This document shows, in pieces, positions 8,578 through 28,997 of a DNA stretch of 32,000 nt. The position numbers and the translations under genes were made by a program. The DNA lies in assembly GCA_003144275.1 (NCBI GenBank), contig NJBF01000015.1, positions 1-32,000 on the forward strand. The letters are read 5' to 3'. The notes under the pieces are model-generated. The model was given only the letters and a program-made list of their open reading frames with translations. It was not told the origin of the DNA and did not search any database. This stretch comes from Candidatus Heimdallarchaeota archaeon B3_Heim (GTDB lineage: Archaea; Asgardarchaeota; Heimdallarchaeia; Hodarchaeales; Hodarchaeaceae). Every line of letters begins with the position of its first letter. The stretch's first letter is position 1.

Positions 8578-9006
8578 ATGGCTGTATTTGCTAAGGCTAG
8601 AATTGAAAAAATTATCAAAGCGAGTGGCGCGGAGCGAGTTAGCGCCAAGAGTATTGTACGTATGGACGAATTAGTCGCTGAATTTGGGAAAAGTACATCC
8701 AAAACTGCGATCGATTTTGCCAAAGCGGCAGGAAGAAAAACTGTACAAGGCGCGGATATTAAAGTTGCCGTATCCAAAATTGGGGTTCCAAAATATTCTC
8801 CAACTGGACCCAAATCGAAAGCATTTGCAAAAGCTCGTGTAGAACGAGTTATTCGAGATGCTGGAGCAGAAAGAGTTAGTGGAGATGCAGTGGATTATCT
8901 GAATAAACAATTAGAAGCCTATTGTTATACCCTAGCCAAGTCTGCGGTTGACATTGCTCGACATGCGAAAAGAAAAACAATAAAAGACACTGATATTATG
9001 CCATAG
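8578..9006 (+). CDS. Tandem (doublet) archaeal histone-fold protein
   Basis: Two HMf-like folds: FAKARIEKIIKASGAERVS...AGRKTVQGADIKVAV and FAKARVERVIRDAGAERVS...RHAKRKTIKDTDI, joined by VPKYSPTGPKSK; SD-like AGGTGA at 8563-8568. Confidence 0.9.
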   Translation: MAVFAKARIEKIIKASGAERVSAKSIVRMDELVAEFGKSTSKTAIDFAKAAGRKTVQGADIKVAVSKIGVPKYSPTGPKSKAFAKARVERVIRDAGAERVSGDAVDYLNKQLEAYCYTLAKSAVDIARHAKRKTIKDTDIMP

Positions 9007-9104: not shown

Positions 9105-10895
9105 GTGCAATATATGCAACATAATCTTCCAGAAAGAATCAAAGAGTTAGGCCAGTTCTTTACTCCCGCTTATATTGCCCAATTTATCGTCCAAAAGACT
9201 ATTGGCCACCATATTTCGAGTGTGAATTCTGACTATCAAAAGGAGTTATTCATTTTAGATCCTTCAGTAGGAGAGGGAATATTCTTGATATCTGCCAAAG
9301 AGTATCTTATCAATGTCTGGGGGCAAAAAAGTGAAAATAGTGTATCTTCTGGAAAGATTAAGTATCAAATTGTCATTAATCAATTATATGGAATCGATGT
9401 CGATCCTAGTAAAGTGCAAATGACACGTGAACTTTTAGGCTATCCGAACCATACTACAAATATCAAAAAATTTAATGCACTCTTACCAAAACCTGATACT
9501 TCCGATAGTACGCAGGACTCAATTCTTATGGGGTGGACGATGAACTTTCCTAAGACAGAAGGAAAATTCCACATCATTATTGGGAATCCACCTTGGGGAG
9601 CAGATATATCCATAATAAAAAACAAATTGCACTATCTAAAAACAGCCACTTCACAAATGGATTCCTGGAGCTTATTTTTAGAGCGAAGTATTTTGGGATT
9701 ACGTGATAATGGATACATGGGGTTCGTTGTTCCTAATACGCTGCTGATTAATCCCAATTATATACAGATACGAGAGATTATCTTAGAACAATGCCAAATA
9801 ACTCATCTAGTAAATCTGGGCGAAGGAATTTTCCCAGGGGTTACTCAACCTTCAATGATCATCATCGCTAGAAAAGCTAAAGCTAATGAAACTCATTTAA
9901 TTAGAATCATTCCAAAGATTTCGAGCGAAGATAAACAACTTTTAGTCGATTTTCAAAAGAAATTAGATGAAATTCAATTCTATGAATGTCCTCAAATAAG
10001 GTTTCTGAAGAATCCGCAAAAAGAATTTAATATATTCGCTGGACCTAATACTGCATTGATCCAGCTAATGGAAAAAGATCTCTATGCTGATCAAAAACAG
10101 GTCACTGTCCTCAGTACACTCGTCATGAATGGGAGAGGGGTAGAAATTGGTAAAAAAGGAAGGGTACTTCTGTGTCCAAGGTGTGAATTTTGGAATCCTC
10201 CACCTCGAACAGCGAGAAAATGCATTAATCCAAACTGTGATCATTTAGTAAGTCCTACTGATACTCATTCAGAAATTGTATATGACTCGCAAAAAGATCC
10301 AACATATGATTTCCCGTTTTTAGCGGGATATCAAATTCAAAGATATTTCACACATAAACACCGATTTATCAGAACAAATTGTCAAGGAATCAACTATAAA
10401 TCACCACAGTTATATCAGGGACTTAAATTATTATTTAGAAAGACTGGAAATGTAATGAACTGGGTTATTGATTATCAAAATCGTTGGGTATCACAGGTGG
10501 TTTATATTTTTAAAAGACGAGATAATTTACCACCAATATTCGATAATATAACCAATGAATACCTACTAGGAGTGCTAAATTCTCAATTGATGATGAAATA
10601 TATCCAATCGAAATTCTTTGACCCTGACAGAACTGATTTTCCACATTTTGTCCAAAGTTCAATCTTAAACCTACCAATTCTTATTCCAAGATCAAGAGAA
10701 GAAAAGAATTTAGCTCAGAAGATTGGTAAGCTCGCACTGAAATTACAGGAGACATATCAAAATCTCTATGAACATTCTTCTGCGAATGAACACCAAGAGA
10801 AGCTACAGGAAAAAATTAGAAGAATTGAGGATGAAATTGAAACGAAAATTGAATCACTTTATGCAATCCCCAATGATAAGAGCTATTTAAAGTAA
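9105..10895 (+). CDS. N6-adenine DNA methyltransferase, gamma class (TaqI/Eco57I-like) with C-terminal target-recognition region
   Basis: GQFFTP (motif X), ILDPSVGEGIFL (motif I), YGIDVD, IIGNPPW (motif IV), GFVVPN. GTG at 9105, alternative ATG at 9114. Confidence 0.85.
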   Translation: MQYMQHNLPERIKELGQFFTPAYIAQFIVQKTIGHHISSVNSDYQKELFILDPSVGEGIFLISAKEYLINVWGQKSENSVSSGKIKYQIVINQLYGIDVDPSKVQMTRELLGYPNHTTNIKKFNALLPKPDTSDSTQDSILMGWTMNFPKTEGKFHIIIGNPPWGADISIIKNKLHYLKTATSQMDSWSLFLERSILGLRDNGYMGFVVPNTLLINPNYIQIREIILEQCQITHLVNLGEGIFPGVTQPSMIIIARKAKANETHLIRIIPKISSEDKQLLVDFQKKLDEIQFYECPQIRFLKNPQKEFNIFAGPNTALIQLMEKDLYADQKQVTVLSTLVMNGRGVEIGKKGRVLLCPRCEFWNPPPRTARKCINPNCDHLVSPTDTHSEIVYDSQKDPTYDFPFLAGYQIQRYFTHKHRFIRTNCQGINYKSPQLYQGLKLLFRKTGNVMNWVIDYQNRWVSQVVYIFKRRDNLPPIFDNITNEYLLGVLNSQLMMKYIQSKFFDPDRTDFPHFVQSSILNLPILIPRSREEKNLAQKIGKLALKLQETYQNLYEHSSANEHQEKLQEKIRRIEDEIETKIESLYAIPNDKSYLK

Positions 10896-11946: not shown

Positions 11947-13284
11947 ATGCCTAAAGATATTTTTGCACAGTATGATCCAATAGAAGAAGCCCTCCAAGAG
12001 GGAATCAATCCAGATGAGTATATAATAGGAACTTATATGATTCAGCTTGGCCCTCGAATGGATCCATGGTATATGGGTCGTGCAGCAGCTTGTGAACAGA
12101 GTACAGGAACATGGGTGCCTGTCCCTGCCAATACACCTGAATTACGATCAAAGTACGGAGCGAAAGTGATTGGAATTTATGAAGTACCCTCTCACGAATT
12201 TGAAATTCCTAAAGGAGTCGAAGAACGGAATTTTATTTATCAAATTGCGTTTCCGACAATTAATCAGACCGATCAAATAGGCCTTATGCTTACAGCTACC
12301 ATAGGAAATATCTCTATGGGAGGCAAACTCAAAATGCTCGATTTGAGATTCCCTCAAAAATGGCTTAAAAATTTTCAAGGGCCCAAGTTTGGAATAGAAG
12401 GTATCAGAAAACTCCTCAAGGTTCCCGATAGACCACTCTTGAACAACATGATTAAACCGTGTAGTGGATGGACTCCTAAAGTAGGGGCACAACTATTCTA
12501 TGCAGCAGCGAAGGGAGGCTGTGATATTGTTAAAGATGATGAACTGATTGCAGACATGGATTACAATAGAGTGGCAGACAGGGTACCTTTGATGATGGAA
12601 GCTGTAGACAAAGTTAGAAATGAAATTGGTGAAGAAACCCTGTATACTGTGAATATCACAGACAAAATCATAAAATTAAAAGAAAATGCTTTAGCTGTGC
12701 AGGATGCAGGTGGAAATGCACTTATGCTAAACTATCTCGTGGTTGGACTTCCCGCTCTACGTATGCTAGCAGAAGATCCAGAAATTAAGCTTCCAATTTT
12801 GGGGCACATGGACATGGCAGGAGTTTATTATGAATCACCAATCTCGGGTATTTCGTCATTCTTGATTATGGGTAAACTAGCAAGACTTGCTGGTGCTGAC
12901 ATTGTTGTATATCCAGCCCCCTACGGCAAAGCTCCCTATCTTAAAGAAAGGTATATGGAAATTGCTAAAGCTCATCGTTATCGAATGCATAATCTTAAAC
13001 CTACACTACCTATGCCATCTGGAGGAATCACACCTGGGATGGTTTTACGTGTTATGCAGGATCTTGGCAATGATATGATGATTGGTTCTGGTGGTGGTAT
13101 TCATGCCCATCCTGATGGACCGATTGCTGGAGCAAAAGCATTTAGACAGGCTATCGACATTGGTATGAAGGATATGAAAGAAGCCTCTGAAGATTTCGAG
13201 GATTATGTCGAAGATCATGAGGAAGAATATCCGGAACTTGCCAAAGCTATGGAAACTTGGGGAGTATCCGATACTCGCCTGTAG
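11947..13284 (+). CDS. RuBisCO-like protein (form IV, RLP)
   Basis: EQSTGTW, MIKP, GCDIVKDDE, LGH, PYGK, PSGG and GSGGGIHAHP motifs; lacks the R295/H298/H327 equivalents needed by carboxylating RuBisCO. Confidence 0.9.
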   Translation: MPKDIFAQYDPIEEALQEGINPDEYIIGTYMIQLGPRMDPWYMGRAAACEQSTGTWVPVPANTPELRSKYGAKVIGIYEVPSHEFEIPKGVEERNFIYQIAFPTINQTDQIGLMLTATIGNISMGGKLKMLDLRFPQKWLKNFQGPKFGIEGIRKLLKVPDRPLLNNMIKPCSGWTPKVGAQLFYAAAKGGCDIVKDDELIADMDYNRVADRVPLMMEAVDKVRNEIGEETLYTVNITDKIIKLKENALAVQDAGGNALMLNYLVVGLPALRMLAEDPEIKLPILGHMDMAGVYYESPISGISSFLIMGKLARLAGADIVVYPAPYGKAPYLKERYMEIAKAHRYRMHNLKPTLPMPSGGITPGMVLRVMQDLGNDMMIGSGGGIHAHPDGPIAGAKAFRQAIDIGMKDMKEASEDFEDYVEDHEEEYPELAKAMETWGVSDTRL

Positions 13285-13312
13285 TTTCTTTTTCTTCCCT
13301 ATTTTTATGAAA

Positions 13313-13621
13313 TTATCCTCCTGCAACGGGAGGAAATATAGCGATGGTATCTCCCTCTTTTAGTGGCGTATTTAATCCATTAAATATACTCATATTGCGT
13401 CCGTTAATGAGGATAACTACCCAACTTCCTAGTTTAGAATATTCATCTAAAATAAGGTCTTTCAAAGGAGGATATTGCGTGATGATAACCTCTAATAACA
13501 ATGATACTGTGGATTTTTCTGTTAACGATATATCAATATCTCTTTTCTTTGTCACTTGTTTGTACGGACCAAAGAATCTAGCTGTTACCTGAAAAGTACT
13601 CTGTTCTCCAGTTGGTGTCAT
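13313..13621 (-). CDS. MoaD/ThiS-family ubiquitin-like sulfur carrier (SAMP-like)
   Basis: Beta-grasp pattern (VILINGRN...LKEGDTIAIFPPVAGG) ending in di-Gly; third gene of the aor run. Confidence 0.88.
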   Translation of the reverse strand: MTPTGEQSTFQVTARFFGPYKQVTKKRDIDISLTEKSTVSLLLEVIITQYPPLKDLILDEYSKLGSWVVILINGRNMSIFNGLNTPLKEGDTIAIFPPVAGG

Positions 13622-13656
13622 AGGAGTTTACTACCGTAGTAAGATTAGGATAAAGA

Positions 13657-15336
13657 TCACGTATGCCCTACTTCTTCTGCTTTTAGTTTCTTCTTATCTA
13701 ATTTCATTACGCGAGTTAGAGGTAGGAAATCACGAATTTCAATTTGTTTAGGGACGGCATAAGGAGGGAGAGTCTCTTTACAGAAATCTAAAATATCATC
13801 CGATGTAGTAGTTTCTTTAAATTCATCCCTTAAAATCACAAATGCTTTTACTCTTTCGCTTCCGGGTCGATCGGGATCAGGTAAACCAATTACTCCAGCC
13901 ATCCGCACTGCAGGATGGGTATGAAGAGTGTCATCAATGACTCGTGAATATACTTTCATTCCCGACACATTGATCATATCTTTAATTCTATCGACTATTT
14001 GAAAATAACCATCCTCATCCATCGTTCCGATATCCCCAGTAGCAAGCCAGCCATCCTTTTGCAATCCTTTTCCTTTCTCTGGCCAATAACCTAACATAAC
14101 CTGCGGGCCCCGAATCCATACCTCTCCCTCTTCTCCGAAAGGAACTTCTACTCTTGTATCAGGATCAACAAGTTTAACTTCAGTATCTGGAGCGGGAACT
14201 CCAATTCCTTGTTTGGCTTTAGTCATAAATCTTGTGACTTTGGAGATCGCTGAAAGGTTGATATGTGTTAGTGGGCTAGTTTCCGTCATTCCATAGCCTT
14301 CGGTCATAGGAACTCCCGTTTTTTTCTCAAATTTTCCTGCTACATCTGAAGGTAAAGCTGCAGCTCCTGAGATGTAAATAATAGGCATTTTTTTGATATC
14401 TTTCTGCAAAAGTTCCATATAGTGTGTGGGAACTGCATACACAGAGAACGGACGTACTTTTTTGATCAATTCAACAATACGATCTATATCTCTTGCATCG
14501 ACTAATATCATACGCAGACCCCACGAAATGGAAGCATGAATAGCCCAGTGTCCATATTGATGAAATATGGGAACACAGATTAATGTAGCAGATTTTCCTT
14601 TTACTCCTCGTTCAAGAGGGTGTAAAAACCATTGTAACGATTGGATCACATTAGTAGTAATATTATAATGGGATAACATTGTCCCCTTCGGGATTCCGGT
14701 TGTTCCACCTGTAAAAGGAAGTAACGCTAGGTCTTCTTTGGCATTAATGGCAACATCTGGAGGATTCGGTTCATATTTCTCAATTAAGTCTTCCAACTTG
14801 AGAGCATCGGGGTCTCCTACAATTTCGGGTTGCTGATAATCAGGAAACAAAGGTATTGGTGTATAAATTAAGTTTTTAATGGATAATTCGTTTCTAATTT
14901 CCTCTATCCGTTCAAGGCGGCGATAAGAGCAAATAATAGTCGTTGTATTAGATTCATTCAATTCATACAGAAGATCTGGTGCTTTATGAAGAATTGACAA
15001 TGGAACATGAACTGCACCAAGTCGCATCAAAGCGTAATCTACAATTATGAATTCTGGACAAGTAGGGAGAATAGTTGCTACTTTGTCATTTTTTTTGACT
15101 CCTAAATCTGCAAATGCAGTAGCTAATTTATCGACCTTTAGTTTTAGTTCAGAATACGTCAATTTTTGCTCTAAATACTCACATGCAATATTATCAGGAT
15201 ATTCGGAGGCTGCATCTTCAAGAAATTTATATACTGAAATCTCTGGATAGGGGGCCATAGTTTTTGGTAGTTTCATTGGCCCTACGAAGTAACTTTTCAA
15301 CCATGGTTTGTCTGCATAAGTAGTCACGCTATTCAC
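13657..15336 (-). CDS. AMP-forming acyl-CoA synthetase (long-chain fatty-acid-CoA ligase family)
   Basis: FTGGTTGIPKG, EGYGMTETSP, TGDIG, DRIKDMINVSG and MKLDKK adenylation motifs; GTG start with SD GAGG. Confidence 0.9.
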   Translation of the reverse strand: MNSVTTYADKPWLKSYFVGPMKLPKTMAPYPEISVYKFLEDAASEYPDNIACEYLEQKLTYSELKLKVDKLATAFADLGVKKNDKVATILPTCPEFIIVDYALMRLGAVHVPLSILHKAPDLLYELNESNTTTIICSYRRLERIEEIRNELSIKNLIYTPIPLFPDYQQPEIVGDPDALKLEDLIEKYEPNPPDVAINAKEDLALLPFTGGTTGIPKGTMLSHYNITTNVIQSLQWFLHPLERGVKGKSATLICVPIFHQYGHWAIHASISWGLRMILVDARDIDRIVELIKKVRPFSVYAVPTHYMELLQKDIKKMPIIYISGAAALPSDVAGKFEKKTGVPMTEGYGMTETSPLTHINLSAISKVTRFMTKAKQGIGVPAPDTEVKLVDPDTRVEVPFGEEGEVWIRGPQVMLGYWPEKGKGLQKDGWLATGDIGTMDEDGYFQIVDRIKDMINVSGMKVYSRVIDDTLHTHPAVRMAGVIGLPDPDRPGSERVKAFVILRDEFKETTTSDDILDFCKETLPPYAVPKQIEIRDFLPLTRVMKLDKKKLKAEEVGHT

Positions 15337-15350
15337 ATTACCTCAATAAG

Positions 15351-17213
15351 TTATAACTTATTTATAAGCCAATTTAGCCCTAATTTTGTTAAAGTGTCTT
15401 CAGTTGGTCTACCATTCTTATCCCATCCACGGTACTGATAATACGCGTCCAACATAGGATCCAGATTAACAATTTGCCCTTCTGCTGGTCCATCTGGTAA
15501 CGGGTCTTCTAACAGTCTTCCAGGTAATGTATCATCATCCCTTGTTAAACCTTCACGGACATTAAAGGCCCGTTCTAAGTTGTAAATCCGCTCTCCAAGT
15601 AATCTGAAATCTTTTTCTGTGAATTCATACCCTAAAAGACTTTGAATTAAGTCCGCCCAATCTTCCCCAGTCAATACCATCCCCATGAATTTGCATCCAG
15701 ATAAAGCGTCAAATACACCAAATGCATCCTCATATTCTTTAACGACTCGTGCTTCTTCTGGAATTTCGAGTAGGCCATCTTCGTCGACCTCACCCTCGTC
15801 AACAATAAGGAATGGCATAGACATGAATGCTGGCCCCTCAATATACGCTGTAATATGATCTCCTCCTCGGTTAGCAGTAGCATATGCTAACCCCGTAATT
15901 TTTGCTGCTCTTGAGTCATATGCAGGTAGTTCCAATCCCTTAACATGCATAGCAAATTTCTCACTTCCTTGACCAAGAGTTTCTGACATAGCTTTGGAAC
16001 CTTCCGCAAGGAAATCTCCGATTCCCTCTCTTTTCGCAATTTTATGAACTAGCTCAATAATTGCATCAGGATCCCCAAATTTGATTTCCGATCCTTTCGT
16101 ATCAGTTAATATTCCTTTTTCTACTGCTTCCATAGCGAAAGCAATCGTTGCACCTGCCGAAATAGTATCAATACCATATTCATTACATAGAAAATGGGCT
16201 TTTGTAATTGCATTCAGGTCATAGATGTCACACATACTTCCAAATGCACCTATTGACTCGTATTCAGGACCTTCACCTTTGGCTTTATATTTTCCATCTT
16301 TTATATCTGATACACGACCACATGCAATTGGACAAGCAAAACATGCTTTTTCTCCAACCAGAATTGTATCGTTTATTGCTTCTCCATTAATTTTCTCATA
16401 TTCTTCTACATACCCTGTTTGCCAATTTCTCGACGGTAGACCCCCTCGTTGGTTTACCATATCTAGGATCGCTGCAGTTCCGAATACTTCAAGAGTAACT
16501 TTTAACAAGCTTTGGTTAACCCAATCAAATCGTTCTTTCGCTTTTTCTCGGTATTCTTCCTTTTCAGCAATTTCAATCGGAATTCGCCCTCTGGATGCAA
16601 TAGCTTTTAAATTTTTAGCTCCCATCACGGTACCTAAGCCACACCTTCCTGCAGCTCTTCCCCAGTATTTGTCATCGACATCATTCATAATTGCAGCATA
16701 TTTCACTTGATTTTCTCCCGCTATTCCAATACATGCAATATTAAATTTTTCCCCTAGATCTTCCTTAAGTTTTGTAGTTGTCTCTGAGGTGCTCATCCCC
16801 CAAAGGTGGGAGGCATCATGTAATTCTGCTTTCCCATTATCAGTTACTAAATAGACTGGTTTCTCTGCTTTTCCTTCAAATATTACTCCGTCATATCCAG
16901 ATCGCTTAAAGTCTCTGCCCCAGAATCCTCCTGAGTTTGCTTGTCCCCAAAATCCAGTTAATGGAGATTTAGCAACCGCAGAAAATCTTCCTGTGCTTGG
17001 GGATGATGTTCCTGTCATTGGCCCAGTCATAAAGATCAATTTGTTGTCAGGTCCTAAAGGATCAGTACCTTTAGGTACTTCGTCAAATAAATACTTTGTT
17101 GCTAACCCTGCTCCTCCTAAAAACATTTTTAAGTCATTTTCATCCGGTACTTCTTCAGTTATGTTACCTGTTGTTAAATTCACTCTTAAAATCTTACCCA
17201 TGTAACCAAACAT
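15351..17213 (-). CDS. aor: Tungsten-dependent aldehyde:ferredoxin oxidoreductase
   Basis: MFGYMGKILRVNLT N-terminus, AKSPLTG, GRAAGRCGLGTVMGAKNLKA, CFACPIACG [4Fe-4S] motif, EYES, GIDTISAG, C-terminal YYQYRGWD...G.P. Confidence 0.92.
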   Translation of the reverse strand: MFGYMGKILRVNLTTGNITEEVPDENDLKMFLGGAGLATKYLFDEVPKGTDPLGPDNKLIFMTGPMTGTSSPSTGRFSAVAKSPLTGFWGQANSGGFWGRDFKRSGYDGVIFEGKAEKPVYLVTDNGKAELHDASHLWGMSTSETTTKLKEDLGEKFNIACIGIAGENQVKYAAIMNDVDDKYWGRAAGRCGLGTVMGAKNLKAIASRGRIPIEIAEKEEYREKAKERFDWVNQSLLKVTLEVFGTAAILDMVNQRGGLPSRNWQTGYVEEYEKINGEAINDTILVGEKACFACPIACGRVSDIKDGKYKAKGEGPEYESIGAFGSMCDIYDLNAITKAHFLCNEYGIDTISAGATIAFAMEAVEKGILTDTKGSEIKFGDPDAIIELVHKIAKREGIGDFLAEGSKAMSETLGQGSEKFAMHVKGLELPAYDSRAAKITGLAYATANRGGDHITAYIEGPAFMSMPFLIVDEGEVDEDGLLEIPEEARVVKEYEDAFGVFDALSGCKFMGMVLTGEDWADLIQSLLGYEFTEKDFRLLGERIYNLERAFNVREGLTRDDDTLPGRLLEDPLPDGPAEGQIVNLDPMLDAYYQYRGWDKNGRPTEDTLTKLGLNWLINKL

Positions 17214-17335
17214 TCTTTCTACAACCGCTAATTGATTTTTGATTAATTTATCACTAATATCTTACTATCCACTTAAAAATCTAGGCCTCTTTGAGAGACG
17301 TGAAATGGTGGACTGCTAAGCAAAGTCTTTAAACA

Positions 17336-17353
17336 TTTGAAAAATATTTCAAA
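17336..17353. promoter_or_regulatory. Palindromic candidate operator between the divergent aor and SCP2 genes
   Basis: TTTGAAA-AATA-TTTCAAA (7-bp perfect arms), directly after TATA-like CTTTAAAC at about 17327-17334. Confidence 0.4.
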
Positions 17354-17449
17354 GAGATTCCGATCAAAACTTGTTTTCTAAGAGGTTAATAGATATTTTC
17401 AGGAAAAATATTATTGGAAGCTATGAAATAATGTATAGGAAGTAAAATC

Positions 17450-17875
17450 ATGGTTGTTTATGGTTCAGAAGAATGGGTAGAAGCACTCGTAGTTAAGATT
17501 AATGAAAGTGAAGCTTATGGAAAAGCTGCAAAGAATTGGGAAGGGGACTTCATTTTCAAAACGATTCCTGACGGTACAGGTACTTTCACAGAAGAAACAA
17601 ATATCTATTGTGATTTATGGCATGGAAAGTGTCGTGCTGCATATTTAGTCGCTCCAGATAAACCCGCTCCCGAAAAAGTTGAATTTATTTACGCGGGAAA
17701 ATATGGAAATTGGTTAAAGTTATTCGATGGTAAGATAGGACCATTAAAAGGAATCATGCAAAGAAAATTTGAAGTAAAGTGCTCAGCAAAATCAATGGCT
17801 AAATTAATGCGAGCTCTAAAAGCAGCCCAAGAGCTGGTTAAATGTACTAGGATTGAGAATGTAGAATATCCATAA
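17450..17875 (+). CDS. SCP2 sterol/lipid-binding domain protein
   Basis: YGSEEW...YGKAAKNWEGDF...DLWHGKC...W.KLFDGKIGPLKGIMQRKFEV pattern of prokaryotic stand-alone SCP2 proteins. Confidence 0.75.
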   Translation: MVVYGSEEWVEALVVKINESEAYGKAAKNWEGDFIFKTIPDGTGTFTEETNIYCDLWHGKCRAAYLVAPDKPAPEKVEFIYAGKYGNWLKLFDGKIGPLKGIMQRKFEVKCSAKSMAKLMRALKAAQELVKCTRIENVEYP

Positions 17876-17902
17876 TTGCACCGAGAAGAAGGATGATATA
17901 AT

Positions 17903-19099
17903 ATGTGGGATTTTACTTCTCCCAGAAAAGTCATTTTTGGTGAGGATGCACTAGAATATCTCTCAGAACAATCTTTCAAGCACGTTTTCGTTGTAACAGA
18001 TCCAGTAATGAGAAAACTACATTTTCATTTGATAGAAAAACAGCTTAAAGCCATAAATGCTGAAATTACAGTTTTTGATGAGGTTCCAGGTGAACCGACA
18101 CTTCAAATTGTAGAAAAAGGAGCTAAACTGCTAGCAGAGGTTAATCCTGATGCTATTATCGCTTTTGGAGGTGGGAGTGTAATGGACTCTGCAAAAGGTA
18201 TGTGGCCGATGTGGGCTTCCCCCCAAGATGGTATGGATGCAATTGAGGGCTTAGATCCCTTTGGTAAGCTCAATCTTCGCGAAAAAACTAGCTGTATTCT
18301 TGTAAATATCCCTACTACTTCTGGAACTGGAGCAGATGTTACATGGTCAACTGTATTGACTGATAATTCAGCAGAAACTGAACGAAAAGCCTCTTTTGGT
18401 AATCGTGAATTAGTAGCCGATATCACAATACTTGATCCGATTCTCACGAAAACTTTACCTAGACATCTGATCGCTGGTACTGGTTTAGATGCACTAAGTC
18501 ATGCCATTGGTGGGTATCTTAGCACTTGGAGTAATGACTTTTCCGATGCGTTTCTAATTCACGCTTTCAAACTTCTGTGGGAAAATCTTACTCTTGCGTA
18601 TCACCAAGCTGAATCAGGTGAGGTAGATTTTGAAATTCGAGAAAAGCTTCATAATGCCGCGACAATGAGCGGATGGGGCTTTGGAAATTCCCAAATAATC
18701 CTTGGCCACGCATTGGGACACAGTATTGGAGCAGCTTTCAAAATTCCCCACTCAAAATGCATAGGTACGACATGCTGGTACTCTTTGATGTACAACAAGA
18801 ACACAGCATCCAATCGAATTGCTGAACTAGCCAGAGCAATTGGCTTAAATGGGAATTCAGAAGAAGAATTGACGGAACAGCTAATTTCTGGAGTGAAGGA
18901 TCTCTTGGGTGAACTTGACATGCCTCTTTCATTACAAGAAATGGGAGTGACAAAGGAAAAATATGACTCTGAGATTGAAACAGTCATTGAATACGCGCTT
19001 AATGACTCAGGAACACTCTCCAATCCTCGACCTGTCGACTATGAAGATTATGTTAAAATTTTCGAAAAATTATTTCTTGGCAATGAACTGGATTTCTAA
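17903..19099 (+). CDS. Iron-containing alcohol dehydrogenase
   Basis: GGGSVMDSAK, PTTSGTG, DALSH...HALGH...PHS metal ligands. Confidence 0.92.
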   Translation: MWDFTSPRKVIFGEDALEYLSEQSFKHVFVVTDPVMRKLHFHLIEKQLKAINAEITVFDEVPGEPTLQIVEKGAKLLAEVNPDAIIAFGGGSVMDSAKGMWPMWASPQDGMDAIEGLDPFGKLNLREKTSCILVNIPTTSGTGADVTWSTVLTDNSAETERKASFGNRELVADITILDPILTKTLPRHLIAGTGLDALSHAIGGYLSTWSNDFSDAFLIHAFKLLWENLTLAYHQAESGEVDFEIREKLHNAATMSGWGFGNSQIILGHALGHSIGAAFKIPHSKCIGTTCWYSLMYNKNTASNRIAELARAIGLNGNSEEELTEQLISGVKDLLGELDMPLSLQEMGVTKEKYDSEIETVIEYALNDSGTLSNPRPVDYEDYVKIFEKLFLGNELDF

Positions 19100-19143
19100 G
19101 TAATTTATTCCCCTTAGAATACAGAAGGATATTATAATAACAT

Positions 19144-19632
19144 TTAATTTTTTGAGGATTTTCTTTCTTCTCTAGGGGAAATTAGGTCGAAACCACATCT
19201 TGGACAAAAATTCTCTTTCGTAATCCGATTATTGCATTCTGGACATTTGATAACTCTTAATCTCTCCCTTAATTTATTTATATCTGGCCATTCCTGCGTT
19301 TTTCGCGGTTTATATTCCATTTTATTTTTAGATATGAAATAGGTGAACTCTTGATCTACCAGCAGAAGTTCGCAATGTTTGCAAAAATAAGCAAGTACCG
19401 ATGAAAATCTCCCTTTTCCAATTTTCATTTTTGGTTTGTGGTTTTCCCTCCAGAATCCCTGACCTTCATCAGGTGATGTTTCATTCCATAAAATTTTCCC
19501 TTCATATAGGGAGAAGTATCTAGATTGACTGGGGGAAAAAATAAACCCCGTGTCCATTGTGACACTACAATCAGGACAAATTCTATCTTTACCATTATCT
19601 TCATTAGGTTTTAGAGAATTTTTTTTCGCCAA
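19144..19632 (-). CDS. Zinc-ribbon protein (CxxC...CxxC N-terminal domain, PF20097-like, plus C-terminal double CxxC ribbon)
   Basis: CPDCSVTMDTGFI...AYFCKHCELLL and CPECNNRITKENFCPRCG; TTG start with SD GAGGAG. Confidence 0.65.
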   Translation of the reverse strand: MAKKNSLKPNEDNGKDRICPDCSVTMDTGFIFSPSQSRYFSLYEGKILWNETSPDEGQGFWRENHKPKMKIGKGRFSSVLAYFCKHCELLLVDQEFTYFISKNKMEYKPRKTQEWPDINKLRERLRVIKCPECNNRITKENFCPRCGFDLISPREERKSSKN

Positions 19633-19881
19633 AATACCACTCCTCGATTTGTATCAATTTCGATTGTTTTTTAAGATTCGTAGTAATTCTGAAAGAAATT
19701 AGGAATTTATAAGTTTATTATAAGCGGAATGTAGTAGTTGAGAATCTCTTCCTCCTTTTGCTTTTCGAGTTTTATGCTCATTCCTGCATTCTACTCAAAA
19801 CTTTCATCCCCCATTAGTTTTTTATTTTTTCAGAAAATACTTACCCTTCAATCTAAATATATACATTATGGATGGTCTTGT

Positions 19882-20262
19882 ATGGTAAATGAGGATCTGT
19901 TGAGAACTCTGTTTGTAAAAAAATCATTAAAGAATATTGAGGGAGGCTTCCAACTAGAGATGAAGAATCCAATTAGCGATGCCACTATTATCGACGCTAT
20001 TAAATTTGAGATAAAAGGAGACGCTATTGAAGGAAAAGAAAAGTATAAAGATTTTGTGGTCGAGATCGGGGGCGAGTCTATTGAAAACAAATCTATTAGC
20101 GAACAAAATCCTGCTGATTTTAGTGTTAAATCTCAGGCCATTCTTCGTTTTAAAAGAGAGCAACCGTTACCTGTTGGGAAATATAAGCTACGATTTACTC
20201 AGTTATTAACCGAACAATACGGCGATATTCCGTTTTCAATGAAAGAGCGTATTCGTGAATGA
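19882..20262 (+). CDS. Uncharacterised 126-aa beta-rich protein
   Basis: True start is most likely ATG 19882 (MVNEDLLRTLFVKKSLKNIEGGFQLEMKNPI...); the 48-aa extension in the ORF track looks like intergenic sequence. Alternating hydrophobic pattern suggests a beta-sandwich. Confidence 0.7.
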   Translation: MVNEDLLRTLFVKKSLKNIEGGFQLEMKNPISDATIIDAIKFEIKGDAIEGKEKYKDFVVEIGGESIENKSISEQNPADFSVKSQAILRFKREQPLPVGKYKLRFTQLLTEQYGDIPFSMKERIRE

Positions 20263-20441
20263 CTCTATAAATTTAAGTAACTGTCTATTTCCTTTTTCAG
20301 AAATACGGGGGAGAGATTTCTGCATTTTTGTATTGATTTTAACTGATTATAGATCCCACAGTAGAAAAATTCTTAAGTCAAAAAAGTGGATTCTCTATAA
20401 CTACTCATCTACTTTTATTATTAAAAGGCTGGTAAGTAAGT

Positions 20442-21815
20442 ATGGAAAATCAGAAACGCTTATTTAAAGATGAAGAAATTCTTGAGTGGATTACAACCCT
20501 AACGGAAGAAGATCTCAGAACAGTACATAAAAAAAGTCTGGTACCCTTCTATGATCAGGTATTTGTAGAAGGAAAAGGAGTTTATTTAAAGGATCACTCA
20601 GGAAAAGAATTTCTTGATTGTACCAGCCAGGCTTGGACATCTAATATCGGTTTTGCAAATCCTGACGTTGCATATGGAGTATCAGAACAAGTTAAACGAC
20701 TTACTCATGTACGGTACGGATTTCCTACCATACCCCGGATTAATTTTATTCACAAACTTGCTTCCATTACCCCTAAAGGCCTGACAAAAATTGCAGTAAA
20801 TGCCATGGGAGGAGGCGCGGCAATAGAAGCTGCTCTCAAACTCACAATGATAAATAAACCCGGTGCAGAGACTTTTTATTCCTATACTCGCGGGTATCAT
20901 GGAAGTTCTTTGGCAACAATGACTCTCGCTACACGATTTGCTGGAGTTACACGGTTTCGTCCATGGGGATTTGATCGGGTGTCAAAAATTCCTTTTCCCT
21001 ACTGTTATCGATGTCCTGTTGGTCAGGAGAATGAAAAATCCTGTAAACTGGAATGTCTTGAGATAGTAAAGCATCTCATTGAATATGGTTCTGTAGACAA
21101 AGTAGCAGGAATTCTCATGGAACCGATTCAAGGTCCAGGTGGACATATTCCTGCTCCTAAGCGTTATATGAAAGAACTAAGAAAATGGACCCAAGCTAAT
21201 GAAATATTTCTGATCTGGGATGAGTCACAGCTCTTTACTCGTATCGGTTATTGGTTCTCTTCAGAATTTTATGACGGGATTAAACCAGATATTACCTGTT
21301 TAACAAAAGCTGTCGGGGGTGGGCTTCCAATGGGTGTCACTATTGCTCGTGAAGATTTAAGTGGTTTTAATTCCGCAGAAGAACATTCTACATTTGGCGC
21401 TAACCCCCTTATGTTTGCCTCAGGGCTTGTATTTTTGAATTATATTGGAAGAGCAAACTTGTTGGAGAATACACGAGAGCAGGGAGCCTATATTACTAAA
21501 AAATTATATAGTTTACAAAAAGAATCAGAATATATTGGAGATATCAGGTGTCCAGGTTTAATGATAGGTATTGAACTGGTTTTGGATCGAGAAACCAAAG
21601 AACCAGCAAATGCTTTAGCGACGGATCTTATTGAAATTGCTAAGGATGAATATGGGGTCATCTTTGGCTTATCTGCCCCTATTTCGAGTGATTCAGGTTC
21701 TTTGTATCGTAATGTTGTAAAAATTAAACCTCCTCTAACAATTACACAAGAGGATTCAGATCATATAATGGATATATTTGAAAAAGCATTAGAAGAAGCT
21801 ATTGATTATTTATAG
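20442..21815 (+). CDS. Class III PLP-dependent aminotransferase-family enzyme
   Basis: GKGVYLKDHSGKEFLD, GYHGSS, ILMEPIQGPGG, WDESQ, DITCLTKAVGGGLPMG (PLP Lys), STFGANP, GLMIGIEL. Confidence 0.92.
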   Translation: MENQKRLFKDEEILEWITTLTEEDLRTVHKKSLVPFYDQVFVEGKGVYLKDHSGKEFLDCTSQAWTSNIGFANPDVAYGVSEQVKRLTHVRYGFPTIPRINFIHKLASITPKGLTKIAVNAMGGGAAIEAALKLTMINKPGAETFYSYTRGYHGSSLATMTLATRFAGVTRFRPWGFDRVSKIPFPYCYRCPVGQENEKSCKLECLEIVKHLIEYGSVDKVAGILMEPIQGPGGHIPAPKRYMKELRKWTQANEIFLIWDESQLFTRIGYWFSSEFYDGIKPDITCLTKAVGGGLPMGVTIAREDLSGFNSAEEHSTFGANPLMFASGLVFLNYIGRANLLENTREQGAYITKKLYSLQKESEYIGDIRCPGLMIGIELVLDRETKEPANALATDLIEIAKDEYGVIFGLSAPISSDSGSLYRNVVKIKPPLTITQEDSDHIMDIFEKALEEAIDYL

Positions 21816-21830
21816 AACTGTTGTGATTGA

Positions 21831-23429
21831 ATGGTTACAAAGAAGTTTCTAGCTTATGATCTTGGAACAACCAGCACAAAGGCTGTATTAATCTCAAACG
21901 ATATTGAATTCCTTGATTCATCAGTAATGGATTATCGGACAATTTTCCCCAAAGCAGGATATGCAGAGCATAATCCTGAAGACTGGTGGCATACTTTAGT
22001 AAGTACTACGCAGGAATTAATGAAAAAAACTGCCACAGATCCTTCTGAAATTAATGCTATTACATTTAGTTCCCAAATGCAAGGATGTCTTCCAGTTGAC
22101 AAAGATGGTACACCGTTAATGAACTGTATGATATGGTTGGACGGTCGAGGAGCCGAAATGATGTCCAAACTCTGGCCATGGCCAAGAGTAATGGGATATA
22201 ATCCCTATCGTTTATTTAGAAAGTTTTTAAAAATTACTGGAGGGTCACCTGGGTTAGCAGGGAAAGATATCATCCCTAAAATTCTGTGGCTGCAAAAAAA
22301 TAATCCCGACCTCCTTCAGAGGACTTTTAAGTTCTTAGATGTAAAAGATTATGTGATTTATTTGCTTACAGGAGTAATGGCCACCTCAACAGATCTTGCA
22401 TATATTTGGTGGTTGATGGACAGTCGGAAGCAAGAAGGGAAACCACGGAATGAATGGTCCCGATCTTTATGTAAAACATTCAAAATCGATATGGAAAAAC
22501 TCCCTGAGCTCCGAAAACCTACAGATATTATTGGTTCATTGTCAGAAAAGGCCGCGTTAGAGTTAGGTCTAGTAAAGGGTATACCTGTCGTAAATGGTGC
22601 TGGTGATATGACTACAGCAGCCATTGGTTCAGGTGCCGTCTTAGATGGAGAACTTCATTGCCAAATTGGGACATCTGGCTGGGTAGCTGGACATGTTTCC
22701 GAAAGAAAAGTAGATATTAGTCATTATACTGGTTGCACTGGTTCAGCTTTCGCTGATCAATTTTATTTAGTTACAGGACATCAGGAAATTGCTGGTTCAG
22801 CACTTGAATGGGTAAAAAATAATATTCTTTATTTTAAAGAGGAATTACAATCTCAAGAAAAGAAAGATGTTTATGAGATTTTTGATGAACTCGTTTCGGA
22901 TTGCCCACCAGGTGGAAAAGCAGCTGGAGGCACAAATTTATTATTTATGCCATGGCTTTATGGAGAAAGATGTCCGTTAGATGATGATCACGTTCGTGGA
23001 GGATTAATCAACCTTTCACTAGACCATGATAGACGCCATTTACTTAGAGCGGTGTTTGAAGGGGTGGCATTCAACGCTCGTTGGGCATTACATACAGTAG
23101 AAAAACTTTATTCTTCTGTAGAATGGCTTTCCATAATTGGAGGAGGAGCCAAATCCGAAGTTTGGTGTCAAATTTATGCTGATATTCTAAATAGAAAAAT
23201 TAAACGTGTTAAAAACCCACAAGAAGCCGGAGCATTAGGTTCCGCGTTAATTGCTAAGATGGCATTAGGAGAAATTCAAAGTTTGGATGAGATTAAACAG
23301 TGTTGTCACTACGACAAAGAATTTACCCCGAATCCTGAGTATCGTGAGCTGTATGATAATCTTTTTAAAGAATTTAAGAATTTATACAAACAAAATAAGA
23401 AATGGTTCAAGAGGATGAATAGCAAGTAG
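21831..23429 (+). CDS. FGGY-family carbohydrate kinase (xylulokinase-like)
   Basis: YDLGTTSTKA, EHNPEDWW, SSQMQG, WLDGR, GAGD, GTSG, PWLYGERCP, RAVFEGVA, IGGGAKSEVWCQIYAD. Confidence 0.92.
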   Translation: MVTKKFLAYDLGTTSTKAVLISNDIEFLDSSVMDYRTIFPKAGYAEHNPEDWWHTLVSTTQELMKKTATDPSEINAITFSSQMQGCLPVDKDGTPLMNCMIWLDGRGAEMMSKLWPWPRVMGYNPYRLFRKFLKITGGSPGLAGKDIIPKILWLQKNNPDLLQRTFKFLDVKDYVIYLLTGVMATSTDLAYIWWLMDSRKQEGKPRNEWSRSLCKTFKIDMEKLPELRKPTDIIGSLSEKAALELGLVKGIPVVNGAGDMTTAAIGSGAVLDGELHCQIGTSGWVAGHVSERKVDISHYTGCTGSAFADQFYLVTGHQEIAGSALEWVKNNILYFKEELQSQEKKDVYEIFDELVSDCPPGGKAAGGTNLLFMPWLYGERCPLDDDHVRGGLINLSLDHDRRHLLRAVFEGVAFNARWALHTVEKLYSSVEWLSIIGGGAKSEVWCQIYADILNRKIKRVKNPQEAGALGSALIAKMALGEIQSLDEIKQCCHYDKEFTPNPEYRELYDNLFKEFKNLYKQNKKWFKRMNSK

Positions 23430-23433
23430 GGCT

Positions 23434-24468
23434 TTAATAATGTGAGGCTAATTTTAGAGTTCGAAAATCATCTGGGAATTTTAACTTAAGATAAATCTGA
23501 ATTTCGGTTTCATCAATCGTTTCCAAAGCAGAATATTCATCAATAGACGATCGTTGAATTCTCGTCCAATTAAGCAAATCTTTACCAATTTTAAGACTCT
23601 TTCTCATTGAATCCGATTCGTCGACGATTAGAATCACTGAAAAATCAGATTCTTCCACACGGACTAGTTTGTAATGTTCATCTAGTTCTGAGGATCCAGT
23701 TCGTTTCATGAGAATTTCTCTCACACCTGCTCCTAAAGAGGCTTGAGCAAACGTATTAACTGCAGTAAACATACTTGTTAACATTGATGGATCATATGTG
23801 ACTTCCTCTTCCTTTGCACTTGTCCCAACTAGCAGACCTGATTCTGTTTTATAAATACATACATTATAGATGTTGATTTTAGGTAAAATAACTTCTCCTG
23901 TTAATGTTTCAATCAACCAGTCAAAAGCTTGATAGAAATTCACACCAGATTTGGCAGACATATGGAAGATATTTACTGCTTTGAATTGGCCTTTTTGCTG
24001 AATTTCGTACAGATCAAAATGCTGTAGGAGTAAAACATAAGGATCTACACCAGAGAGATCTGCTTTGTTTGCAGCAAGTAATAAGATCCCATTTGGTTTG
24101 ATATGGGGAAGTGCATTAAATAATGCAGTTTTACTCTCTTCAAATGATTCTGGATTTGAACAATCGACTACAAAGACAATAGCAGATGCAATACGTAGAT
24201 AATCCTCCCAGATCATGTGGAAAGATTCTTGGCCCCCCAAATCAAATGCCTGAAAGGCTACATCACGATATTCGAATTGATCAACGTTTAGCCCCATAGT
24301 TCTCGCTGAAGTTCCATGAAATTCTCCTGTTCGTAACCTTTGTAGTATAGTAGTTTTACCTGCAAACCCTAGACCAATAAAAGTTATTAATTTTTCAGCT
24401 ATTGGTTCTTTTGAATCAATATCTTTAGTCTTCTCTCTTCGTCTGAATAGGCGCTTTAATAAAGACAT
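23434..24468 (-). CDS. Arf-like small GTPase fused to a C-terminal longin-like domain
   Basis: G1 GLGFAGKTT, G2 RTMG, G3 DLGGQ, G4 NKAD, G5 SAK; C-terminal IYNVCIYKTESGLLV...DPSMLTSMFTAVNTFAQ...VREI...SVILIVD longin-type pattern. Confidence 0.85.
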   Translation of the reverse strand: MSLLKRLFRRREKTKDIDSKEPIAEKLITFIGLGFAGKTTILQRLRTGEFHGTSARTMGLNVDQFEYRDVAFQAFDLGGQESFHMIWEDYLRIASAIVFVVDCSNPESFEESKTALFNALPHIKPNGILLLAANKADLSGVDPYVLLLQHFDLYEIQQKGQFKAVNIFHMSAKSGVNFYQAFDWLIETLTGEVILPKINIYNVCIYKTESGLLVGTSAKEEEVTYDPSMLTSMFTAVNTFAQASLGAGVREILMKRTGSSELDEHYKLVRVEESDFSVILIVDESDSMRKSLKIGKDLLNWTRIQRSSIDEYSALETIDETEIQIYLKLKFPDDFRTLKLASHY

Positions 24469-24644: not shown

Positions 24645-25736
24645 TCAGGTATGGTTCGGGTCGGATTTATCGAAAAATTTAGTAAGTTCAATTCTTTTAT
24701 CTGAAAGGTCTTTTTTGTCAATATGAGTATGAAAATAGCTAAAATATTCCGTAAATAGCTTAGTATCTTGTCTTAAATTATCAAGAACATCTTGAACAAT
24801 GCGTATTTCGTTATATTCCTTCTTTGTAAATGAAAATATGTTCTGATCCAATAATTCATCAAATGTAAGATTATCTGCTAACTCCACATATTTATAAATC
24901 GTTTGTTCAAGATGGGGAATCAAATTCACTGGCTGGGGGAAAAATTGGTGTTCGCTTATTCGTTGCTGGATAACCTTTTTACGTGGAAATTTCTCATAGC
25001 CAATTCCATTAACATCTAAAATCCTTGCAGCTGCAAGAGTAGTGCCTGTACCAGCAAAAGGATCAAGAACGTTTTTCGCGCCAGTTAACTTAATGCAACG
25101 GTAAGGTAGCTCGATTGGAAATGGCGCTTCGTGGCCTTTTTTTATTGTGCTCCCAGTTGTACGAGAGTACGGAATGAACCAAACATTTCCCGCATCCCTC
25201 AGATCTGATTTTGCGTATCTTCCAATGTTTGATTTATCTGCATAAGGAATACCAATCGCTTGTGGATTCATCCGATATTTTTTACGGTCTTTAACAAAGA
25301 CAAAGATGTATTCAAAGATATTGTTTAATCGTCTACTCCGACCAGACGGTGTATAATGGCCTCTTCCTAAAAAAGATTTCAACCAAATAATTGTTTGAAG
25401 ACGAAAAAATCCAGCGTTGGGTGCTAATTCTGCAATTCTATTTGATAATCCCTGGCTATTGGCCGAATCTCCGATATTTAGAAAAAACATTCCTTTAGAT
25501 GAAAGAACTCTGTAACATTCAGACCAAACCTGCAATAGTAGTGCTTCATATTCTGCCTCAGATTTTTGATCATCATAAACGTTACCTTCATCATCTGAAT
25601 AAACTTTGCTTCGATTATAAGGGGGTGAAGTGACAATCACGTCAATAGATGAATCCTTAACCTCTTTCATATCCTCTGAGCTTTTATAGTAAATTATCTG
25701 GTTCCCAATCTTGTCATAATTCGGTTCTGAATCCAT
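24645..25736 (-). CDS. Beta-class N4-cytosine/N6-adenine DNA methyltransferase
   Basis: IVTSPPY (motif IV) N-terminal, HEAPFP, LDPFAGTGTT (motif I) C-terminal, followed by a ~110-aa extension. Confidence 0.88.
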   Translation of the reverse strand: MDSEPNYDKIGNQIIYYKSSEDMKEVKDSSIDVIVTSPPYNRSKVYSDDEGNVYDDQKSEAEYEALLLQVWSECYRVLSSKGMFFLNIGDSANSQGLSNRIAELAPNAGFFRLQTIIWLKSFLGRGHYTPSGRSRRLNNIFEYIFVFVKDRKKYRMNPQAIGIPYADKSNIGRYAKSDLRDAGNVWFIPYSRTTGSTIKKGHEAPFPIELPYRCIKLTGAKNVLDPFAGTGTTLAAARILDVNGIGYEKFPRKKVIQQRISEHQFFPQPVNLIPHLEQTIYKYVELADNLTFDELLDQNIFSFTKKEYNEIRIVQDVLDNLRQDTKLFTEYFSYFHTHIDKKDLSDKRIELTKFFDKSDPNHT

Positions 25737-28980: not shown

Positions 28981-28997
28981 AAAAAAAAGTGATAAAT

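Follow-up and report, generated by a model that had tools for sequence, protein, structure and literature searches.

A RuBisCO-like protein, an FGGY kinase and a class-III pyridoxal-phosphate enzyme at a Hodarchaeales locus as the probable Asgard version of a widespread undescribed pathway

The first 32,000 nucleotides of contig NJBF01000015.1 of Candidatus Heimdallarchaeota archaeon B3_Heim (Hodarchaeales), hereafter the window, encode a RuBisCO-like protein (RLP) together with an FGGY kinase, a class-III pyridoxal-phosphate (PLP) enzyme, a small all-beta protein and a block of lipid-oxidation genes, whose relation to one another is the subject of this work. Window genes were identified by Pfam and NCBIfam profile scans (Table 1), and all those named in an initial annotation of the same DNA were found where it had placed them. 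The small protein was likewise present as annotated, except that its start is the ATG at 19882 rather than the TTG at 19738, the N-terminus MVNEDLLR... being found in all homologues. The RLP gene is convergent with the MoaD gene, the terminal one of an AOR-ligase-MoaD operon (gaps of 14 and 35 bp), and this operon diverges from the pair of SCP2 and iron-containing alcohol dehydrogenase (Fe-ADH) genes, which are separated by 27 bp and run in the same direction as the genes of the small protein, the aminotransferase and the FGGY kinase, with 15 bp between the latter two. These strands and gaps bear out two caveats raised previously, that the RLP gene faces moaD and that the genes fall into several transcription units. 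The core genes are thus split in the window, with the RLP gene followed 6.6 kb downstream by the small protein-aminotransferase-FGGY operon. The Zn-ribbon gene has no counterpart in any same-genus locus, including that of a 95%-identical relative (L023), and is an interruption unique to the present genome.

Table 1. Genes of the core set and of the block between its parts, with the profile evidence for each (positions are those of the window).
Feature	Position	Strand	Evidence
RuBisCO-like protein (RLP), 445 aa	11947-13284	+	PF00016 150.6 bits (cut-off 30.1), PF02788 32.9 bits (cut-off 20.7)
MoaD/SAMP-like protein	13313-13621	-	TIGR01687 71.5 bits, over cut-off
AMP-forming acyl-CoA ligase	13657-15336	-	Pfam/NCBIfam
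Aldehyde:ferredoxin oxidoreductase (AOR)	15351-17213	-	AFOR_N 267.8 bits, AFOR_C 470 bits
SCP2	17450-17875	+	Pfam
Fe-ADH	17903-19099	+	Pfam
Zn-ribbon protein	19144-19632	-	weak Zn-ribbon Pfam matches
Small all-beta protein, 126 aa	19882-20262	+	PF25653 47.9 bits
Class-III PLP enzyme (aminotransferase), 457 aa	20442-21815	+	PF00202 250 bits
FGGY kinase, 532 aa	21831-23429	+	PF00370 and PF02782 (159 and 120.6 bits)

Functional divergence within an enzyme superfamily has a classic example in the RuBisCO-like proteins, for which, to our knowledge, only a handful of reactions have been described. The window RLP stayed below all NCBIfam equivalog cut-offs, reaching 345.2 bits (cut-off 409) and 288.9 bits (cut-off 513.6) with the MtnW/YkrW enolase models NF007095 and TIGR03332, respectively, 237.6 bits (cut-off 497.45) with the form III RuBisCO model TIGR03326, and 157 bits (cut-off 700) with the OiaX model. 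Its best match among solved structures (E 3e-75), as among the NCBIfam models (345 bits), was the MtnW/YkrW enolase of Geobacillus kaustophilus (2oek) and Bacillus subtilis (2zvi), with which it has in common the KDDE carbamate/metal motif, K175, H294, the proximal phosphate loops and an apolar distal pocket, but its neighbours are a kinase and an aminotransferase and not mtn genes. The form III RuBisCO of the same genome (L001:1480-2790, TIGR03326 538.9 bits) has the same fold and 31% overall identity to the RLP, and alignment of the two revealed that 14 of the 19 RuBisCO active-site residues were kept (E60, T65, W66, N123, K175, K201, D203, E204, H294, K334, S379, G381, G403 and G404), among them four with a part in carboxylation and hydrolysis (E60, N123, K334 and H294), whereas five were replaced (T173 by Met, K177 by Cys172, R295 by Met288, H298 by Ala291 and H327 by Val321). 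Both the kept and the replaced states were invariant or nearly so in an alignment of 12 clade members from Asgard archaea and bacteria, the motifs AxEQSTGTW, IKPC and GHMD were invariant in the clade alignment, and no gene of the stretch is better conserved across the genus than that of the RLP (84-95% identity).

The proximal phosphate site and the metal centre of the RLP are intact, while the distal-phosphate site is a conserved apolar patch lying beside a clade-specific Asp289. Since K177, R295, H298, H327 and T173 are all replaced, the second phosphate of ribulose 1,5-bisphosphate would not be bound, and from the intact proximal site and metal centre combined with the apolar distal site we infer that the substrate carries a single phosphate and that its tail is uncharged; the hydrophobic tail proposed earlier would fit the conserved Met/Cys/Met/Ala/Val set at this position. 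Lys98 of the G. kaustophilus enolase (2oek numbering), which is reported to be its catalytic general base, was aligned by phmmer with Asn121 of the RLP (TFGKLS versus TIGNIS), and the positions of E60 and K334, both retained in the RLP, are Leu and Ser in 2oek. Together with the sub-cut-off MtnW scores, these residues argue against a plain 2,3-diketo-5-methylthiopentyl-1-phosphate (DK-MTP-1-P) enolase, which the initial annotation had named as the alternative to its own proposal, and the RLP is no more the known enolase than it is a carboxylase.

A second RLP, 52-56% identical to the window RLP, is encoded in many genomes of the genus (for example at L033:12107-13393 in G009, and in G007, G011, G012, G014, G015, G017 and G019), and was not found in the present genome. 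It is without K175, IKPCSG having become IDH plus a three-residue gap, and without one Gly of the GGG phosphate loop, with KDDE, GHMD and K334 kept, and may be a catalytically altered paralogue. In G014 and G015 it is the sole RLP copy and occurs alongside a kinase orthologue.

The clade of the window RLP was surveyed by a pattern scan in which each species was represented by one genome; this gave at least 599 stretches, at least 576 of them confirmed, and the neighbours were analysed in the best 80 loci by tblastn and by unbiased clustering of open reading frames (ORFs). These species-level loci span the Chloroflexota, Actinomycetota, Caldisericota and Bacillota, several Asgard lineages, the Bathyarchaeia and Archaeoglobus, and the window RLP is 56-60% identical to hundreds of bacterial members. 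Among the 35 bacterial loci with enough flank, an FGGY kinase lay within 4 kb of the RLP gene in 34, a saccharopine-dehydrogenase (saccharopine-DH)/carboxynorspermidine-synthase-like enzyme was present in 17, and a class-III PLP enzyme in 13, a count that includes cross-hits as the ORF clustering merged the window type with a glutamate-1-semialdehyde (GSA)-aminomutase-like type. The FGGY gene was located immediately upstream of the RLP gene on the same strand at 38 of 59 loci outside the genus, and the commonest gene order was aminotransferase, FGGY, RLP, as in L042, where a major facilitator superfamily (MFS) transporter gene precedes these three and DUF401, small-protein and GHMP-kinase genes follow them. 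MFS or other transporters and TetR regulators occur in the bacterial operons. Heimdall-group contigs outside the genus carried aminotransferase, FGGY, a class-II aldolase-fold gene and RLP in this order; the small-protein gene directly after the RLP gene; aminotransferase, small protein and a decarboxylase about 9 kb from the RLP gene; aminotransferase, small protein and RLP with other genes between; or the small protein-aminotransferase-FGGY trio without an RLP gene.

Because the co-location of RLP, kinase and PLP enzyme recurs across domains, from Hodarchaeales to Chloroflexota, it is far beyond chance and reflects a genuine, conserved linkage, and the earlier proposal that these three enzymes belong to one undescribed pathway has gained from it. 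A description of the operon was not found in the literature, the coverage of which was incomplete and amounts to no proof of absence. With a probability of roughly 60%, we read the stretch as the Asgard form of a kinase-RLP pathway that is widespread but undescribed, accompanied by a separate acyl-CoA module that lies between the core parts in this genus only. That the RLP and the kinase operon are instead uncoupled in the present genome, their nearness being inherited gene order without meaning, is given the slightest chance of the alternatives considered here. The synteny of the whole stretch in the genus takes in plainly unrelated genes, i.e. those of an Arf GTPase, a DNA methylase and an ABC permease, and is for this reason uninformative on function when taken alone; in the closed genome G009 the RLP gene and the kinase operon are 1.96 Mb apart; and a 12-mer (with at most one mismatch) shared upstream of the RLP, SCP2 and small-protein genes across the genus was not found, although this test was crude, had the small-protein window set at the old TTG start, and gives no evidence of independent regulation. 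All this would suit two unconnected units, but the orthologous genes are adjacent across domains, and of nine genera of the class that were searched, the present one alone yielded the RLP clade and the kinase clade. This joint occurrence counts as one lineage and one event.

The FGGY kinase is xylulokinase-like, with 300.8 bits against a cut-off of 380.25 for the XylB equivalog, and it was the top match in its genome for 48 of 51 RLP-adjacent kinases. In a quick maximum-likelihood tree it fell into a single clade with the RLP-adjacent kinases (SH-aLRT 96), apart from the two other FGGY genes of the genome, which assigns it by sequence to the RLP-linked kinase clade. The PLP enzyme reached no NCBIfam equivalog cut-off, and is 45% identical to the bacterial enzymes of aminotransferase-FGGY-RLP operons, with which it has a DESQ...RIG motif (DESQLFT-RIG) in common; its PLP-binding Asp260 and Schiff-base Lys289 were invariant in the alignment. 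It is probably a transaminase that takes off the amino group of the substrate, and a phospho-lyase role is less likely because it would strip the phosphate needed by the intact phosphate site of the RLP. Residues ~190-215 of the PLP enzyme and of its operon orthologues hold a four-Cys segment (PYCYRCP...C...C), which the GSA-aminomutase-like enzymes in the alignment are without and which may bind a metal or serve as a structural motif.

A second kinase module was detected on contig C82 of the same genome (L127:8620-11437), in which a saccharopine-DH-like gene (404 aa), the orthologue of the bacterial RLP-linked partner, comes immediately before the gene of an FGGY paralogue (528 aa) that shares 42% identity with the window kinase. 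This module, mirroring the bacterial alternative, has no RLP gene beside it and an IS605 TnpB-type gene upstream. The saccharopine-DH gene of the window itself (28989-30353) was also considered as the counterpart of the bacterial partner and rejected, with 24% identity over the N-terminal 150 residues and the orthologue lying on C82.

From these neighbours and residues the following pathway can be proposed. The PLP enzyme would act as a transaminase on an amino-alcohol or amino-polyol taken up by the cell and yield a hydroxy-ketone, and the FGGY kinase would phosphorylate the adjoining primary hydroxyl, giving a monophosphorylated ketol with a C1-P/C2=O/C3-OH unit. The RLP would hold this ketol phosphate through its proximal phosphate site and carbamate-Mg centre, with the unphosphorylated tail in the apolar pocket, would take the C3 proton to form an enediolate, and would either reprotonate the latter, as an isomerase or epimerase, or carry it further. 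The alternation of the transaminase with a saccharopine-DH-like enzyme acting on C-N bonds suggests an amine-bearing substrate, the MFS transporters and TetR regulators in the operons suggest uptake and catabolism, and the order of the aminotransferase, FGGY and RLP genes is weak support for the order of the steps.

Two alternative schemes would use the same enzymes on sugar phosphates. In the erythritol pathway of Brucella and Rhizobium (EryA, EryC, TpiA2 and RpiB), the FGGY kinase EryA feeds a short keto-sugar phosphate to an enediolate enzyme. Here, the PLP enzyme could turn a C4 amino-polyol into erythrulose and the kinase could make a tetrulose phosphate, to be epimerised or isomerised by the RLP in an EryC-like step toward erythrose-4-phosphate. 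Epimerisation at C3 through a 2,3-enediolate is natural RLP chemistry and the kinase is xylulokinase-like, but this route is unlikely, as a C4 sugar leaves the conserved apolar distal pocket without a role and the saccharopine-DH-like alternative and the acyl-CoA neighbours unexplained. Paralogues of EryB, EryC, TpiA2 or RpiB are absent here, with an RLP and an amine-handling enzyme instead; no triose-phosphate isomerase (TIM) or RpiB appeared among the recurrent neighbour families of the 80 annotated loci, where no search was aimed at either; and the one TIM and one RpiB of the present genome are both on other contigs.

The other scheme, considered highly improbable, is a variant of methylthio- or 5-deoxy-pentose salvage, in which the kinase would yield 5-methylthio- or 5-deoxy-ribulose-1-phosphate, the RLP would isomerise it as in Rhodospirillum rubrum, and the PLP enzyme would perform the final transamination. 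The nearest solved and modelled relatives of the RLP are MtnW enolases with a similar apolar distal pocket, a bona fide MtnA is encoded on another contig of the genome (C63; 346 bits, cut-off 279), and the class-II aldolase-fold gene between kinase and RLP on one Heimdall-group contig would find a place in such a route. On the other hand, Lys98 of the enolase is Asn in the RLP and both MtnW cut-offs were missed; among the window proteins scanned there is no MtnA, MtnB, MtnX or MtnD, as had been noted initially, and no mtn gene stood beside the RLP gene in the examined contexts or among the recurrent neighbour families of the 80 loci; acireductone dioxygenase was not found in the whole genome, which is 94% complete; the transporters and TetR regulators suggest that the substrate is taken up from outside; and the saccharopine-DH-like alternative has no place. 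The R. rubrum RLP, a 5-methylthio-D-ribulose-1-phosphate isomerase, and the RLPs of the apiose pathways (OiaX and others) reportedly use monophosphorylated keto-sugars or keto-acids, made by partner kinases, via an enediolate. Both are much more distant from the window RLP than the enolases are (3qfw, 112 bits; 2qyg, 178 bits), their partner kinases belong to families other than that of the FGGY kinase here, and, unlike the window set, these systems involve no aminotransferase.

The small protein appears to be an accessory partner of the kinase-RLP set in Heimdall-group archaea and some Anaerolineales. Outside the Heimdall-group archaea its genes were seen only at a few Anaerolineales loci, where DUF401 is present too, and they adjoin an RLP or aminotransferase gene in five loci (L041, L040, L126, L137 and L042). 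The AlphaFold2 model is all-beta (pLDDT 92), and Foldseek matched it to 8qvc_B, 7dre_B and 7bvs_B with probability 1.0 and TM-scores of ~0.65, all of them beta subunits of C-glycoside deglycosidases; in the AlphaFold DB the fold also occurs as the N-terminal domain of larger enzymes. With these subunits (DgpB, DfgB and the AgCar small chain; 8qvc_B, 7dre_B, 7bvr) the small protein shares the beta-sandwich fold, the stand-alone form of ~125 aa and a gene position beside enzymes of keto-sugar chemistry, but identity is 12-17%, the Pfam CGDB score (PF19906) is 19.4 against a cut-off of 27.6, and the xylose-isomerase-like alpha subunit is missing from the window, known subunits being partners of a metal-dependent TIM-barrel enzyme. 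Complex prediction for the RLP dimer with the small protein scored 0.00, below the mark and run without controls, and speaks neither for nor against binding. Some genomes that belong to the genus, or stand near it, have a further Fe-ADH gene and one for an ABM (antibiotic-biosynthesis-monooxygenase-fold) protein divergent from the small-protein operon (L134:9943-10926 and L136:8355-9874). A PLP-decarboxylase-fold gene beside that of the small protein in L040 was followed as a lead to sphingosine-1-phosphate lyase and dropped, its best model being diaminobutyrate decarboxylase with 238 bits (cut-off 900); no homologue was found in the present genome.

The genes between the core parts, for MoaD, ligase, AOR, SCP2 and Fe-ADH, would by their families form a coherent module from alcohol, aldehyde or acid to acyl-CoA, and the AOR, by its AFOR domains a member of the tungsten/molybdenum family, lies with a MoaD-type protein, a frequent companion of pterin-cofactor enzymes. 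In most of the genus the genes of SCP2, Fe-ADH, small protein, aminotransferase and FGGY are contiguous and co-directional, next to the AOR gene, the contiguity of the SCP2-Fe-ADH pair with the small-protein operon being seen in L023, L026, L134 and L136. Elsewhere in the genus this arrangement is broken: the lipid block is inverted in G019, split off by insertions in G007 and G011, and in G001 block and kinase operon are together, with the RLP gene on another contig; the SCP2-Fe-ADH pair is absent beside the small-protein operon in G009, which has the RLP, MoaD and ligase genes at 4.20 Mb and those of small protein, aminotransferase, FGGY and Arf GTPase at 2.24 Mb, and in which no AOR orthologue was found (best match 42%). 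In L137, too, the pair is absent beside this operon. AOR orthologues (at least 70% identity) were confined to the genus, and the five Heimdall-group contexts outside it contained no MoaD, ligase, AOR, SCP2 or Fe-ADH gene. Among the 35 bacterial loci, Fe-ADH was counted in 5, AOR and acyl-CoA ligase in 1 each, SCP2 and MoaD in none, acyl-CoA dehydrogenase (ACAD) in 6 and thiolase in 4. Given the genus-only AOR orthologues, the absence near the core in G009 and the absence from the five outside contexts, the lipid block is a genus-specific neighbour and not a conserved part of the pathway, although it could be a local downstream extension. The comparison of neighbours suggested with the initial annotation has hence upheld the FGGY kinase (34/35) and the class-III PLP enzyme (13/35) as conserved partners, but neither SCP2, AOR nor Fe-ADH, and its placing of SCP2, Fe-ADH, AOR, ligase and MoaD as downstream steps has to be given up for a set that is genus-only, dispensable in G009 and found at 0 to 5 of the 35 bacterial loci. 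The present genome has four AOR matches and relatives have up to seven; many of the paralogue matches contain a single in-frame stop, which in the C82 copy is simply the normal end of the gene, past which the match continues.

These counts bear directly on a sphingoid route, by which a sphingoid-like 2-amino-1,3-diol lipid would undergo transamination and C1 phosphorylation before the RLP cleaved it, and the long-chain aldehyde released would be carried by SCP2 and then converted by Fe-ADH, AOR and ligase to acyl-CoA. The conserved apolar distal pocket of the RLP would suit such a tail, the genes from SCP2 to FGGY form one co-directional array beside AOR in most of the genus, and independent arrangements in Chloroflexota place ACAD, thiolase, ligase, hot-dog hydratases, PlsY or CoA-transferase at the FGGY-RLP pair; the resemblance of the small protein to a C-glycoside-deglycosidase subunit can be added, as the small subunit of that enzyme sits beside a bulky aglycone. 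The route is nonetheless unlikely and is not supported by conservation: its downstream genes are at most single occurrences in bacterial loci for SCP2, MoaD, AOR and ligase, the lipid genes are absent from the Heimdall-group contexts outside the genus, and G009 retains the RLP and the kinase operon without an AOR orthologue or SCP2/Fe-ADH beside the operon. Moreover, acyl-CoA genes are so abundant in these genomes that chance adjacency is expected, no sphingolipid-specific gene was found nearby, and we know of no RLP that performs retro-aldol C-C cleavage.

The reading of the stretch as a kinase-RLP pathway with a separate acyl-CoA module has several observations to contend with. The kinase of the window, a member of the linked clade, starts (21831) 8.5 kb downstream of the RLP end (13284) with the genus-specific block between them, the RLP gene is nowhere in the genus immediately beside the kinase gene, and linkage in other archaeal lineages is weak (FGGY near the RLP gene in 2 of 9, aminotransferase in 3 of 9). 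The nearest solved relatives of the PLP enzyme include epimerases and racemases, so that it may be a racemase or lyase instead of a transaminase, and for all clade members the substrate and the reaction are read from residues and neighbours. Separation of the acyl-CoA genes from the pathway is also less clear in the Chloroflexota: Dehalococcoidales have FGGY, RLP, saccharopine-DH-like, ACAD, nitroreductase/ferredoxin, ligase, thiolase and ligase genes in one tight array, in others the FGGY-RLP pair has a block of ACAD, thiolase, hot-dog hydratase and PlsY genes, or a CoA-transferase gene, next to it, and in L116 and L060 acyl-CoA genes and the pair lie in a single co-directional array. These neighbours keep a lipid or acid connection alive, with overall frequencies that are low and genomes that are rich in such genes. 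Finally, K334, E60, N123 and H294 are retained though needless for plain enolisation, which hints at further chemistry. As the full carboxylation/hydrolysis set is kept, the clade might make or break a C-C bond, and the boldest version of our reading, a long shot, is that it catalyses a reaction new to the superfamily on an apolar-tailed ketol monophosphate made from an amino-alcohol lipid or amino-polyol, giving for example a C3 phosphate and a fatty acid or aldehyde, the product of which would feed SCP2, Fe-ADH, AOR and ligase in the genus. If the C-C chemistry and the link to the lipid module were both real, this would be an oxygen-free degradation route for sphingoid-type lipids.

The split layout of the Asgard set, a small partner resembling the deglycosidase beta subunit, a further kinase module in the genome, and the recognition of the lipid genes as a genus-specific insertion are new here. 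The RLP clade is large, with many uncultured members from sediment and subsurface metagenomes, its active site is closer to that of RuBisCO than is that of the characterised enolase, and its fixed kinase partner and interchangeable amine-handling partners make up a defined three-enzyme set. A functional assignment would add a reaction to the RLP repertoire, annotate hundreds of genomes and inform how a carboxylase active site is re-used; for Asgard biology, the pathway would be one further bacterial-type catabolic module in Hodarchaeales.

The remainder of the window (GC ~37%) contains several other genes. A 142-aa protein with two tandem histone folds (CBFD_NFYB_HMF in two stretches), 75-80% conserved in the genus, is encoded at 8578-9006, and an Arf-family small GTPase of 344 aa, its C-terminus much extended, at 23434-24468, convergent with the FGGY kinase gene, which it adjoins in every examined genome of the genus even with the RLP gene far off. 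DNA methyltransferase genes of the Eco57I/TaqI_C type (9105-10895) and the N6_N4_Mtase type (24645-25736), and a tyrosine recombinase gene at the window end (31239-31973), could represent mobile or restriction-modification elements on either side of the region. An acyl-CoA dehydrogenase gene (1965-3197) lies ~9 kb upstream of the RLP gene, beside those of an MFS transporter and a CDP-alcohol phosphatidyltransferase, and at 27652-30353 an AlaDh_PNT-type gene (442 aa) adjoins the saccharopine dehydrogenase gene (454 aa, Sacchrp_dh_C 280 bits), the two looking like a lysine-saccharopine pair.

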